DNA from: Candidatus Bathyarchaeota archaeon
GTDB lineage: Archaea; Thermoproteota; Bathyarchaeia; Bathyarchaeales; Bathycorpusculaceae
DNA length: 17,528 nucleotides
Assembly (NCBI GenBank): GCA_963780185.1
Contig: CAWABA010000002.1
Span: 1 to 17,528, forward strand
Direction of reading: 5' to 3'
The translations under genes and the position numbers were made by a program. The notes below the pieces were generated by a model. That model searched no databases, was not told the origin of the DNA, and saw only the letters and a program-made list of their open reading frames with translations. Position 1 is the first letter of the stretch. Each line of letters begins with the position of its first letter. Shown in pieces: positions 9,928 to 12,749 of the stretch.

Positions 9928-11652
9928 GTGATTCACGAATTTGACGTAGTTATCGTCGGCGCAGGGATCGCTGGCATGACGGCTGCATTGACAGCTTCAG
10001 AAACCTGCAACATAGCTGTAATCAGCAAGGTCTATGCGTCCCGTAGTCACAGCGGCTCAGCGCAAGGCGGCATCGCGGCGGCTCTTGGAAACGAAGAGGA
10101 AGACCACTGGGAATGGCACATGTTTGACACGGTGAAGGGAAGCGACTACTTAGCAGACCAAGATATGGCTGAGATTCTAGCTCGGGAAGCGCCCGAAAGG
10201 GTAATTGAGCTGGAGCATCTCGGGGTACCCTTCAGCCGCAACGGCGAAGGCAAGATTGAGCAGCGGCGGTTCGGCGGTCACACCAAGAACTTCGGGGAAG
10301 CGCCTGTTAAGCGGGCTTGCTACGCCTCTGACAGAACGGGGCGCGTCATCATGGACACGCTGTACGACCATTGTACGGTGCGAGGTGTAAAAATATTCAA
10401 TGAAGTCTTCGTGACGTCGCTTCTGATGTCTGAGGGTCGATGCTGCGGCGTCGCTGGCTACGAGTTGGCGACGGGTGAACCCGTAGTCTTCCATGGGAAA
10501 GCCGTGTTGCTGGCTACTGGCGGCTGCGGCAGAATGTTCCAAACCACCTCGATGTCTTACGCGGCGACGGGCGACGGCTTCGCCTTGGCTTTTGACGCTG
10601 GCGTCCCACTTGAAGATATGGAGTTTGTGCAGTTTCACCCAACTGGCATCCATGGCTTAGGCATCTTAGTCAGCGAAGCCGCGAGGTCTGAAGGCGGCGT
10701 GTTGCGGAACGGCAAATGCGAACGGTTCATGGAGCGTTACGCGCCGACGCTGAAGGATTTAGCGCCCAGAGACATCATTTCCCGAGCTATCCTAACTGAA
10801 ATCGCCGAGGGTAGAGGCGCAGAAGGCTCCGACTACGTTTACTTGGATTTGACGCATTTGGGCAAGGAGCAGTTGCAGCATAAGCTTTCGGAGGTTACCT
10901 CTTTTGTGAAGACTTACCTTGGCATCGACGCGAGTGAGTCGTTGATTCCTGTGGCGCCCACATGCCACTACATGATGGGTGGCATCCCCACCGACGCAGA
11001 AGCACGCGTCCTATCAAACGAAAAAAACACGGTTTTGCCTGGGCTTTGGGCGGCGGGTGAATGCGCATGCGTCAGCGTCCACGGCGCAAACAGGTTGGGC
11101 ACTAACTCACTGGTTGACCTGCTTGTTTTCGGCAAAAGAGCAGGCTTAGACATCGCCAAATACGCCAGCAAAACCCCCCTGACGCCTCTGCCCGAAGATG
11201 CGGAGCAGTCTGTTTCATCAAAAATCGACAGGTTTCTGGCTTCAGGTGGGGCAGAGCGGGTTTCCGTGGTTCGAGGTGAGATGGAGCGGACGATGACGAA
11301 GTTGTGCAGCGTGTTCCGCGACAGGGCTGGGCTTGAGCAGGCGCTCTTTAAAATCCGTGAGCTTCAGGGCAGAATGGCAAACATCAATTTGAGCTACCAT
11401 GGAAGAAACTTCAACTACGAGCTTGAAGACGCGTTTGAACTGCAGAATATGCTCAGGCTTTCGGAGACAATCGTGTTTTCGGCGCTGCAACGGCAGGAAA
11501 GCCGCGGAGCCCATTTCCGCAATGACTTTCCCATACGCAATGATGAAACGTGGCTGAAACACACGTTAGTTTTCCAGTCACCGTCTGAGCTTGAGGCACG
11601 TTACAAACCCGTGGTCATAACCCGTTTTGAACCCAAAACCAGGAAGTACTAA
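9928..11652 (+). CDS. sdhA: Succinate dehydrogenase/fumarate reductase flavoprotein subunit
   Basis: [11 protein letters not shown]; covalent-FAD His in [43 protein letters not shown] and [12 protein letters not shown] 9928 fits the family N-terminus, so the ORF track start at 9799 is probably too long. Confidence 0.95.
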
Positions 11653-11653
11653 C

Positions 11654-12382
11654 ATGAAAGTAACATTGAAAATCTTCCGTTTCGCCCCCAAAGTCGACAT
11701 GCAACCCCACTACGACATCTTCATAGTCGACGCTAAACCCACGGATCGCCTGCTGGACTGCCTCAACAGGGTCCGCTGGGAACAAGACGGCAGCCTCGCG
11801 TACCGTATGAGCTGCGCCCACGGCATCTGCGGCAGCGACGGCATGACAATCAACGGCGTCTCCGCCTTGGCATGCCAGAAGCTTGTCAAAGACTATTCTG
11901 CAGACAAGGAAATCCTCATCGAACCCCTCAGTGTCTTCCCCGTCGTGAAAGATTTGGTGGTGGATTTAGAGGGGTTTTTCGCGGCGGAAAAGTCGGTTCA
12001 TCCCCCAGAAGGCATAAACCTCACCGAGTCGGTGGAGGGCAAAGAGCACGTGCAGTCGGTAACGCAGCGCCTTGCGTTTGACGACGACATAAAATGCATC
12101 ATGTGCGCCTGCTGCGTAGGCGCGTGTCCAGTCAGCCAGAAAGAGGATCCATCCTACGTTGGTCCAGCCGCCATCGTCCGCGCCCACCGCTACATCTTCG
12201 ACAGCCGCATCAGAGACCAGCTTGAACGACTCAAAATCATGGATCAGCCGCACGGCGACTGGAGCTGCAAAACGTATTACCGATGCACAGTGGTCTGCCC
12301 CAAGGAAATTCAGGTAACCAAGCGGATTTTGGAAGTCAGGAAGAAAATTATGGATGAATTGCGGCCAAAACAGCCCTTGTAA
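11654..12382 (+). CDS. sdhB: Succinate dehydrogenase/fumarate reductase iron-sulfur subunit
   Basis: [2Fe-2S] motif SCAHGICGSDG...LAC, plus CIMCACCVGACP and CKTYYRCTVVCP ([4Fe-4S]/[3Fe-4S] pattern). ATG 11654 is 1 nt after the sdhA stop. Confidence 0.95.
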   Translation: MKVTLKIFRFAPKVDMQPHYDIFIVDAKPTDRLLDCLNRVRWEQDGSLAYRMSCAHGICGSDGMTINGVSALACQKLVKDYSADKEILIEPLSVFPVVKDLVVDLEGFFAAEKSVHPPEGINLTESVEGKEHVQSVTQRLAFDDDIKCIMCACCVGACPVSQKEDPSYVGPAAIVRAHRYIFDSRIRDQLERLKIMDQPHGDWSCKTYYRCTVVCPKEIQVTKRILEVRKKIMDELRPKQPL

Positions 12383-12440
12383 ATGAAGCTGAGAACAGGC
12401 GCTGCTCTCTTCTGCATGGGACAGTTAAGTGGGGGTTCGG

Positions 12441-12456
12441 CGAAAACGTATATAAT
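12441..12456 (+). promoter_or_regulatory. Candidate BRE/TATA upstream of the ferredoxin gene
   Basis: CGAAAA followed by CGTATATAAT, about 40-55 nt upstream of ATG 12495/12510. Confidence 0.4.
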
Positions 12457-12509
12457 CTGCCCATGTGATTCAGCTTTTAGCCAAGGGGAAACGGATGGGT
12501 ACCTCTCAA

Positions 12510-12749
12510 ATGCTTGAAAAACAAAAAACCAAAACCGTCGCCTGCATAAGATGCGGCGTATGCATGCGCAGTTGCCCACACAACCTGAGCCCAATCTTGA
12601 TTAAAGAGGCTTTTGAAAAAGAGAAGTTTGAAAAACTGATGAAGCTTCGGGTGGATCTTTGTGAGGGCTGTGGAAACTGCACTTTCGTTTGTCCGTCAAG
12701 AATTGACCTGCGGGTTTTTGTGCTGAAAGCGAAGGCATCCGTGCGTTAA
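12510..12749 (+). CDS. Small 2[4Fe-4S] dicluster ferredoxin resembling the isolated C-terminal Fe-S domain of RnfC/RsxC
   Basis: CIRCGVCMRSCP.NLSP and CEGCGNCTFVCPSRIDL......AK; 79 aa from ATG 12510 (ATG 12495 alternative). Confidence 0.85.
   Translation: MLEKQKTKTVACIRCGVCMRSCPHNLSPILIKEAFEKEKFEKLMKLRVDLCEGCGNCTFVCPSRIDLRVFVLKAKASVR

Follow-up and report, generated by a model that had tools for sequence, protein, structure and literature searches.

An sdhAB pair without recognised anchor genes, next to a ferredoxin gene, in a Bathyarchaeia genome

The sdhAB pair and the search for its anchor

The DNA analysed here is an entire 17,528-bp contig (C2, hereafter the window) of a Candidatus Bathyarchaeota genome (G000; 2.75 Mb in 13 contigs, 93% complete), in which sdhA and sdhB, encoding the flavoprotein and iron-sulfur subunits of a complex II-type succinate/fumarate oxidoreductase, are followed by a small ferredoxin gene (Table 1). 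Classes of complex II are told apart by their membrane anchors, and a first-pass annotation of this stretch had proposed an anchorless, soluble fumarate reductase that takes electrons from the adjacent ferredoxin as its dedicated donor and forms one system with succinyl-CoA synthetase (SucCD) in a reductive tricarboxylic acid (TCA) branch. Gene identities were assigned with Pfam and NCBIfam profile searches, and NCBIfam scores are given relative to curated cut-offs. The sucD and sucC genes, both in the window and each present in a single copy in G000, lie 1.46 kb upstream of sdhA on the opposite strand, in agreement with the distance of about 1.5 kb first estimated, and a membrane-protein gene occupies the interval.

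Both Sdh subunits are complete, as had been noted from the sequence. SdhA combines FAD_binding_2 (PF00890, 363.7 bits) and Succ_DH_flav_C (PF02910, 141.3 bits) domains and exceeds the cut-offs of TIGR01816, “sdhA_forward” (767.9 versus 727), and TIGR01812 (750 versus 567). Alignment to the Escherichia coli (1NEK_A) and Mycobacterium smegmatis (6LUM_A) enzymes revealed that RSHS..AQGG, with the His that binds flavin adenine dinucleotide (FAD) covalently, FHPTG, RDIISR, HYMMGG and HGANRLG are all kept; the roles of the covalent-FAD and catalytic His and Arg residues are presumed here from the E. coli literature. SdhB (242 aa) consists of Fer2_3 and Fer4 domains with no CCG extension and passes NF004616 (257.9 versus 228) as well as TIGR00384. 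Its cluster ligands (C54, C59 and C74; C148, C151, C154 and C158; C205, C211 and C215) are invariant in 60 sequences, in which D62 is nearly invariant (at least 90%). The best solved match for both subunits is 6LUM (684 bits for SdhA, 221 for SdhB, versus 529 and 145 for 1NEK), and the catalytic loop of the window SdhA has the Ser-Glu variant found in 6LUM.

Ratios of nonsynonymous to synonymous substitution (dN/dS) relative to close relatives are 0.04-0.10 for sdhA, 0.08-0.11 for sdhB and 0.09-0.11 for the ferredoxin gene, and all three genes are under purifying selection. Pieces of 151-300 nt identical to the window sdhA and sdhB occur in public soil and freshwater-sediment runs (Logan contigs from four runs, short pieces only), and an SdhB 97% identical to that of the window was found elsewhere.

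An excerpt of PMC3750248 describes the SdhC and SdhD anchors as poorly conserved, and the anchor search was therefore calibrated on Bathyarchaeia anchors. Across 301 Bathyarchaeia genomes, PF01127 matched in 26 (24 over cut-off), including 18 of 43 in family f30, and nearly all of these matches are SdhC/SdhD pairs adjoining sdhAB in families f30 and f19. Neither the 14 genus-mates of G000 nor five close relatives (G301-G305) contain a match over cut-off. In G000 itself the best PF01127 match reaches only E=0.3, in the 285-aa membrane protein encoded between sucC and sdhA, and PF02300 and TIGR02046 gave no match. Lineage-matched hidden Markov models (HMMs), trained on 14 SdhC-like and 10 SdhD-like sequences from Bathyarchaeia operons, regained all positives at E<=1e-30. 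In G000, translated in six frames, their E-values went no lower than 0.7, and 107 related loci yielded no match either (best E 0.19-0.8 across these searches). The CCG domain (PF02754) occurs in G000 in HdrB alone, on contig C9 beside HdrC and a hydrogenase, and beside sdhAB in none of the loci. Two claims of the first-pass annotation, that sdhC and sdhD are missing on either side of sdhAB and that SdhB is free of CCG domains, are thus upheld, and the genome-wide search for CCG and SdhC/D anchors that it called for turned up no cognate anchor.

The SdhB tree (33 rows from a quick IQ-TREE search, with three split frames omitted and a TfrB-like outgroup trimmed to 250 residues) joined all 15 anchorless rows in one clade with a stem length of 2.29 and a Shimodaira-Hasegawa-like approximate likelihood ratio test (SH-aLRT) support of 100. 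Its sister group, with support 94, comprises eight SdhCD-linked Bathyarchaeia rows. These sdhCDAB operons of families f30 and f19 come from the same taxonomic class as the window and keep SdhC and SdhD together with the SdhB motifs CPxxW and C-H-T-x-F-N-C (8/8 rows), whereas the clade of the window has none of these. None of the 14 aligned anchorless rows retains the Trp, where one residue has been inserted, or the His, whose place is taken by Lys (by Asp in one row); CPVYW of 6LUM_B, for instance, reads CPVSQ in the window SdhB. We take this Trp and His to be the residues that line the quinone site in the E. coli and mammalian (porcine) enzymes. At least 120 SdhB clusters at 70% identity or more were listed for the anchorless clade, the named ones coming almost entirely from Bathyarchaeia. 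Overall, the comparisons indicate an anchorless state that is real and clade-wide, in which the quinone-pocket Trp and His appear to have been lost with the SdhC/SdhD anchor. A literature search found no description of such an anchorless Bathyarchaeia clade.

The explanation that we favour, at a probability of roughly 0.65, is that the window carries an intact member of an anchorless SdhAB clade in an island-derived locus, next to a ferredoxin from an independent backbone. The clade has lost SdhC, SdhD and the SdhB quinone-pocket residues while SdhAB stayed under selection, and the enzyme would act as a cytoplasmic succinate/fumarate oxidoreductase whose [3Fe-4S] end exchanges electrons with a soluble carrier instead of quinone. 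The sdhAB and sucDC genes and the membrane-protein gene would be the remainder of a larger island in a variable slot, and the ferredoxin, with its own promoter, would be part of a ferredoxin-S19e backbone brought beside sdhB by the loss of three genes. From the absence of an anchor and the lost motifs, SdhAB is most likely soluble and served by a soluble redox partner. Several points weigh against this reading: the soluble carrier is deduced from an absence and from lost motifs, the poor conservation of anchors and the 93% completeness of the genome both limit the negative search, and the indels of a second allele on contig C9, together with the frameshifted genes of the window, make erosion of the locus possible.

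A well-populated archaeal clade that has neither anchor nor quinone pocket and is strongly selected would exemplify a “soluble module” of complex II. Karavaeva and Sousa, in a 2023 abstract, are said to have proposed a primordial module of this kind. For annotation, the clade is a warning that “sdhAB present” does not equal respiratory complex II present in Bathyarchaeia.

Table 1. Positions of genes and other features in the window and, where a locus is named, in related loci
Feature	Position	Strand	Basis or remark
Flippase-like gene			First in gene order, left of the nucleotidyltransferase frames
Sugar-nucleotidyltransferase	2140-3195		Split over three frames
rmlC-like, rmlB and rmlD genes			Followed by Rpr2, left of YhbY
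YhbY (CRM-domain) gene	6040..6351	+	Left border of the variable slot; Pfam and synteny
sucD, succinyl-CoA synthetase alpha	6413..7330	-	Pfam; TIGR01019 410.8 versus cut-off 353; accessory-island member
sucC, succinyl-CoA synthetase beta	7327..8469	-	Pfam; NF001913 437 versus cut-off 370
Membrane protein, 285 aa, C-terminal immunoglobulin (Ig)-like (filamin-type) domain	8721..9578	+	Weak Pfam Filamin match; no NCBIfam match
Promoter-like conserved segment 5' of sdhA	9829..9863	+	blastn of the intergenic region
sdhA, flavoprotein subunit, intact, GTG start	9928..11652	+	Pfam, NCBIfam, alignment
sdhB, iron-sulfur subunit (2Fe-2S, 4Fe-4S and 3Fe-4S motifs)	11654..12382	+	Pfam, NCBIfam, alignment
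B recognition element (BRE)/TATA-like box AAAACGTATATAA	12443..12455	+	~40 nt before the ferredoxin ATG
Small 2x[4Fe-4S] ferredoxin	12495..12749	+	Backbone gene; Pfam, alignment, NCBIfam
Ribosomal protein S19e	12826..13338	+	Pfam; conserved neighbour 3' of the ferredoxin by synteny
dsDNA-binding protein, then L31e			After S19e in gene order
PAS histidine kinase	14653-17048		Split over two overlapping frames
P-type ATPase	17068-17469		C-terminal fragment only
Second sdhA'-sdhB' allele on C9	10364..12156 (window equivalent)		~78% identical, broken by indels
Rubredoxin-FMN dehydrogenase	L148:8294-9622; L149:8168-9454(-); L150:8957-10243(-); L151:8794-9924(-)		Not in the window
ComA-family gene	L148:5517-6353; L149:9768-10610; L150:10429-11271; L151:10268-11125		Not in the window
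144-aa protein, four predicted helices	L084:3661-4095(-); L173/L174:4367-4795(-); L178:5532-5963(-)		Not in the window
RnfD-RnfC-type fusion gene	L014:358-1740		Also L095, L097, L098, L100; no other rnf genes seen nearby

The accessory island and its variable slot

In close relatives, whose SdhA is 82-84% identical to that of the window, an island of ~18 kb devoted to the TCA cycle and respiration fills the slot from yhbY to the ferredoxin gene (full islands at L149-L151, L164, L171, L173, L199 and L202). Read in the orientation of the window, it begins with UbiA, followed by a UbiE-type methyltransferase, a copper protein, cytochrome b and a Rieske-like protein, then sucDC and a PrpD-like gene; the middle holds, in some cases, a homolog of the membrane protein, then ComA, a rubredoxin-FMN (flavin mononucleotide) dehydrogenase, sdhA and sdhB; and the right part consists of citrate/2-methylcitrate synthase, a GlcD-like oxidase and a polyprenyl synthase. 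The genes from UbiA to the Rieske-like protein are found in the island of some relatives only. At other loci the same slot contains nothing, a flavodiiron-like gene, respiratory genes alone, or an insertion sequence (IS)/methylase. The share of the window is limited to sucDC, the membrane protein and sdhAB, and tblastn for remnants of the missing island genes gave none in the window at E<0.01, with promoter-sized intergenic matches only. With blastn, the promoter-like segment 5' of sdhA aligned at 84-94% identity with its upstream equivalents in L149, L150, L151 and L084; its counterpart in relatives stands 5' of the rubredoxin-FMN dehydrogenase gene, and in the window it stands directly 5' of sdhA. 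The GC content of sdhAB is 0.55 (0.63-0.70 at third codon positions) versus 0.45-0.46 in the flanks.

Besides this island arrangement (type 2), the anchorless clade has a type-1 locus with the order HD-domain gene, sdhA, sdhB, fumC. In G000 the HD-domain gene adjoins fumC with no sdhAB between them (L258, C6:172075-174328), unlike in its genus-mates, and the genome carries the island-type copy only, without a type-1 sdhAB. Within 8 kb 5' of sdhAB, sucCD was found at 7 of 23 loci, all of type 2 (7/12, versus 0/11 of type 1). Linkage of sucCD is confined to one island type, and on these gene neighbourhoods a ferredoxin-SdhAB-SucCD system, as first envisaged, is not supported.

A ComA-family phosphosulfolactate synthase, of coenzyme M biosynthesis, lies within the island of relatives that are non-methanogenic (Table 1). 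Genes for UbiA, the UbiE-type methyltransferase, the copper protein, cytochrome b and the Rieske-like protein occupy the slot at L090, L092, L094, L149-L151 and L171. At four loci, the opposite strand just 5' of sdhA or the rubredoxin-dehydrogenase gene encodes a protein of 144 aa that is predicted to have four membrane helices and matches no Pfam family.

The gene directly 5' of sdhA in relatives fuses rubredoxin to a dehydrogenase of the FMN-dependent L-lactate-oxidase family. In L148-L150 its frame runs 4 nt into the start of sdhA, and it stands 5' of sdhA in 10 of 15 assessable type-2 metagenome loci; it is not in the window. The fused protein is a candidate redox partner for the anchorless enzyme. 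One could imagine a new soluble class of complex II wired to cytoplasmic dehydrogenases, in which the rubredoxin domain docks at the [3Fe-4S] end of SdhB to give a 2-hydroxyacid:fumarate oxidoreductase. Lactate or a related acid would be oxidised and fumarate reduced, and the window would hold a stripped version that uses free small iron-sulfur carriers, the neighbouring ferredoxin possibly among them. We regard this proposal as speculative and rather unlikely.

We assign a low probability to a second alternative, in which an anchor that profiles fail to recognise, either the 285-aa membrane protein or the product of a gene elsewhere, keeps the enzyme a membrane-bound quinone oxidoreductase. 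Anchor subunits diverge readily, as already cited, the membrane protein is the sole PF01127 candidate of G000, its homologs (68-74% identity) lie inside the island at L149, L150 and L202, and the island of relatives includes quinone-related and cytochrome b genes. Yet the Ig-like domain of this protein is common to large surface proteins, resembling repeats in those of ~600-2300 aa, and a homolog of its transmembrane part is encoded by G160, in which SdhB is missing. It is not found in L148, L151, L084 or most metagenome loci, the SdhB Trp and His are lost throughout the aligned clade, MqnA/D, cytochrome b and oxidase genes were not found in G000, and the lineage-matched HMMs found nothing. 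With a PF01127 match at E=0.3 only, no NCBIfam match, patchy presence and a surface-protein domain, the membrane protein was rejected as the Sdh anchor.

Positions 1-7157 of contig C9 in G000 overlap window positions 10364-17528, and the two contigs are identical from ~12157 onward. To the left of this point C9 carries a second sdhA'-sdhB' allele (Table 1) with 22 small indels in 1.8 kb, and ~60% of its substitutions relative to the window fall at third codon positions (175/290 in sdhA, 42/68 in sdhB). We regard it as a genuine second allele that stems from another strain or is of low sequence quality, and it does not count against the window genes. Two strains, or an unresolved duplication, could account for the overlap of C2 and C9, and an exchange boundary would then lie within the 3' end of sdhB.

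The state of this allele bears on whether the locus in G000 is a decaying island relic with sdhAB out of use, which seems improbable to us. Decay would fit the loss of most island genes relative to L149-L151, the indels of C9, a nucleotidyltransferase in three pieces, a split PAS kinase and an HD-fumC locus in G000 without the sdhAB that genus-mates have. However, sdhA and sdhB of the window have their full length and keep all catalytic and cluster residues, their dN/dS is 0.04-0.11, the promoter segment is conserved, an SdhB of 97% identity exists elsewhere, and sucCD and sdhAB are the sole copies able to close the TCA gene set of G000. The broken nucleotidyltransferase, the PAS kinase and the ATPase fragment on the contig could be frameshift errors or pseudogenes.

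The neighbouring ferredoxin

The ferredoxin contains eight Cys in two CxxCxxCxxxCP motifs, conserved in 27 family members, and has an isoelectric point of 9.3 and a net charge of +8. An eight-Cys protein does follow sdhB as first annotated, with a length that depends on the start codon: 84 aa from the ATG at 12495, the reported 79 aa from the next Met, and 94 aa from a GTG at 12465. Its description as RnfC-like holds for the C-terminal domain only. The protein covers positions 355-431 of the 435 in the rnfC model, at 65.7 bits versus a cut-off of 246, and has none of the N-terminal domains of RnfC; in this lineage, moreover, the domain ends an RnfD-like protein. The top ferredoxin matches in the class sample are the C-termini of 434-471-aa open frames, RnfD-like with an RnfC-type end, and the ferredoxin is a free paralogue of the C-terminal domain of that fusion protein.

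The fusion itself, an RnfD-like membrane domain joined to an RnfC-type 2x[4Fe-4S] domain, was observed in Bathyarchaeia as a protein of 436-464 aa (Table 1). The copy in G000 (C1:95978-97005, PF03116 match) is interrupted by a stop codon; no rnf neighbours were found in 14 kb around it, and no full Rnf gene set was seen.

Stand-alone ferredoxins were compared at 14 loci, namely the window and L082-L094 (L013 is the same place as L093). The S19e gene follows within ~170 nt at 10 of them, at 560 nt in one and at 3-4.5 kb in three. The 5' side is variable: sdhB precedes the ferredoxin gene in two (the window and L084), polyprenyl synthase in five and a Rieske-like gene in two, with sucC, yhbY, a flavodiiron-like gene, an unknown gene and a contig end in one locus each. 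The BRE/TATA-like box is kept in 12 of the 14 loci, independent of the upstream neighbour. In the opposite direction, 80 metagenome loci were found with SdhB, of which 56 were assessable (at least 700 nt 3' of sdhB); the gene after sdhB is FumC in 29, citrate synthase in 16 and the ferredoxin in two, with nothing recognised in nine. Anywhere in the flank downstream of sdhB, the ferredoxin occurs at 0 of 30 type-1 and 9 of 26 type-2 loci.

The two also part company between genomes. A genus-mate that is 98% complete (G283) has the order yhbY, ferredoxin, S19e and no SdhB at E<=1e-10; the islands of L182 and L199 pass from polyprenyl synthase directly to S19e, with the ferredoxin missing; and G305 carries sdhAB and the ferredoxin on separate contigs. 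None of the Logan pieces, which are short, spans sdhB to the ferredoxin in the four runs. As judged from these arrangements, the ferredoxin is evidently a backbone gene with its own conserved promoter that stands beside sdhB by accident and is not a dedicated partner. It now adjoins sdhB because the three genes that part them in relatives are missing here. For annotation generally, gene adjacency in a variable genomic slot does not equal partnership.

The first-pass annotation had instead made this 2x[4Fe-4S] protein the dedicated donor of a soluble fumarate reductase coupled to SucCD, an arrangement that we now consider very unlikely. Electron transfer from a low-potential ferredoxin to fumarate is thermodynamically downhill, the gene is conserved and under selection, it adjoins sdhB in the same orientation in the window, L084, L178 and L181, and the 9 of 26 type-2 loci above place it in the downstream flank. 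However, sdhB and the ferredoxin are 4-5 kb apart (~6.8 kb in L165) or unlinked in most loci. The ferredoxin has a promoter of its own and persists in G283 without SdhB, and sdhAB does without the ferredoxin at L182, L199 and all type-1 loci. The co-occurrence check that the annotation proposed thus showed no linkage to sdhAB in other genomes (2/14, 2/56 and G283), an outcome that it had itself listed as refuting.

Complex prediction for SdhB and the ferredoxin returned a score of 0.00 versus a mark of 0.32, a “no answer” that counts neither for nor against binding. With net charges of +8 for the ferredoxin and +6 for the distal SdhB end, both are basic, which speaks weakly against a dedicated pair; with a basic C-terminus in both SdhB clades, charge complementarity does not discriminate and was set aside as a partner test.

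Direction of the reaction and related enzymes

G000 encodes an aconitase-family protein (432 aa, possibly partial), isocitrate dehydrogenase and both ATP-citrate lyase subunits at C11:86255-91758 (L257), FumC and an Mdh/Ldh-family protein on C6, and a 2-oxoacid:ferredoxin oxidoreductase (OFOR) on C10. A true citrate synthase was not found in G000. ATP-citrate lyase (PF16114) was detected in 19 of the 301 Bathyarchaeia genomes sampled. Neither a heme-copper oxidase nor MqnA/D (PF02621) nor any homolog of the UbiA/cytochrome b cluster of its relatives turned up in searches of G000; other quinone pathways were not searched. Heme-copper oxidase subunit I is present in 3 of 5 close relatives (loci L152-L156), which fits facultatively aerobic peatland Bathyarchaeia as reported in an excerpt of PMC11619403. 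The distribution points to a genus with aerobic respiratory potential that would be missing in G000.

We infer that SdhAB of G000 most likely reduces fumarate in a reductive TCA cycle or branch and draws on a soluble donor. The fumarate-reducing direction is preferred because ATP-citrate lyase, FumC, Mdh and OFOR are present and oxidase, cytochrome b and menaquinone genes were not found. The original proposal of a soluble fumarate reductase in a reductive TCA branch therefore survives in part: the enzyme is anchorless and probably soluble, and its metabolic context is plausible, whereas the dedicated ferredoxin donor falls away.

Several observations pull the other way. SdhA passes the “sdhA_forward” succinate-dehydrogenase equivalog, the closest solved enzyme (6LUM) is a succinate:menaquinone reductase, the island of relatives contains citrate synthase and PrpD, and three of the five relatives have the oxidase; together these features point to succinate oxidation as ancestral. 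ATP-citrate lyase and anchorless SdhB also co-occur only loosely, with both in G000 and G214, the lyase alone in G187 and SdhB alone in G157, G175 and G193. ATP-citrate lyase was dropped as a co-occurring marker of the clade, its association being loose within the genus.

Among characterised enzymes, the window pair shares its cofactor motifs, the covalent-FAD His and the Ser-Glu loop variant with the class A complex II of M. smegmatis, Sdh2 (PDB 6LUM). Sdh2, according to an excerpt of PMC10238741, is a menaquinone reductase that includes SdhC, SdhD and SdhF and two hemes, whereas no anchor gene was found here. The window pair likewise departs from the membrane-bound classes A-D and F in general, with no SdhC/SdhD or equivalent found and with the quinone-pocket Trp and His replaced. 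Class E complex II has an SdhE/SdhF-type anchor with CCG domains; no CCG subunit is encoded beside sdhAB.

The thiol:fumarate reductase of methanogens, TfrAB, appears in an excerpt of PMC11459464 as a complex II relative of anaerobic archaea that is soluble and has two subunits. TfrB ends in CCG domains, in contrast to the 242-aa SdhB of the window, and the Tfr models score far under their cut-offs (TfrA 470 versus 718 for NF004900, TfrB 128 versus 385 for NF004898). A similar action with HdrBC supplied in trans, from beside the Mvh-like hydrogenase on C9, can be largely dismissed: HdrB is the only CCG protein of G000, many other Bathyarchaeia have long TfrB-like SdhB homologs (frames of 511-600 aa) and the coenzyme M family ComA lies in the island of relatives, but hdr genes are linked to sdhAB in 0 of 96 sdhAB loci examined, the Tfr models fail as just described, and ComA is not in the window.

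Two bacterial enzymes offer partial parallels. Hydrogenobacter thermophilus FrdABCDE is described in an excerpt of PMC13147460 as a fumarate reductase that is soluble, depends on NADH and serves the reductive TCA cycle; it has three further subunits (FrdC, FrdD and FrdE), and its likeness to the window SdhAB is by description only. The same excerpt states that some Aquificota possess just the A and B subunits, with the donor not known, and the anchorless archaeal clade bears on this question of the donor to fumarate in reductive-TCA organisms with A and B alone. Syntrophobacter fumaroxidans SdhAB-2, an uncharacterised anchorless pair clustered with fumarase according to an excerpt of PMC5947623, resembles the HD-sdhAB-fumC loci of the anchorless clade; this enzyme is bacterial and is likened by gene arrangement.

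Finally, one locus in the comparison carries a bacterial label. The contig L089, titled as a Limnocylindrales bacterium metagenome-assembled genome (MAG), encodes Rpr2, YhbY, sucDC, the ferredoxin, S19e and L31e at 75-88% identity to the window; it probably derives from Bathyarchaeia and was placed in a bacterial MAG during binning.

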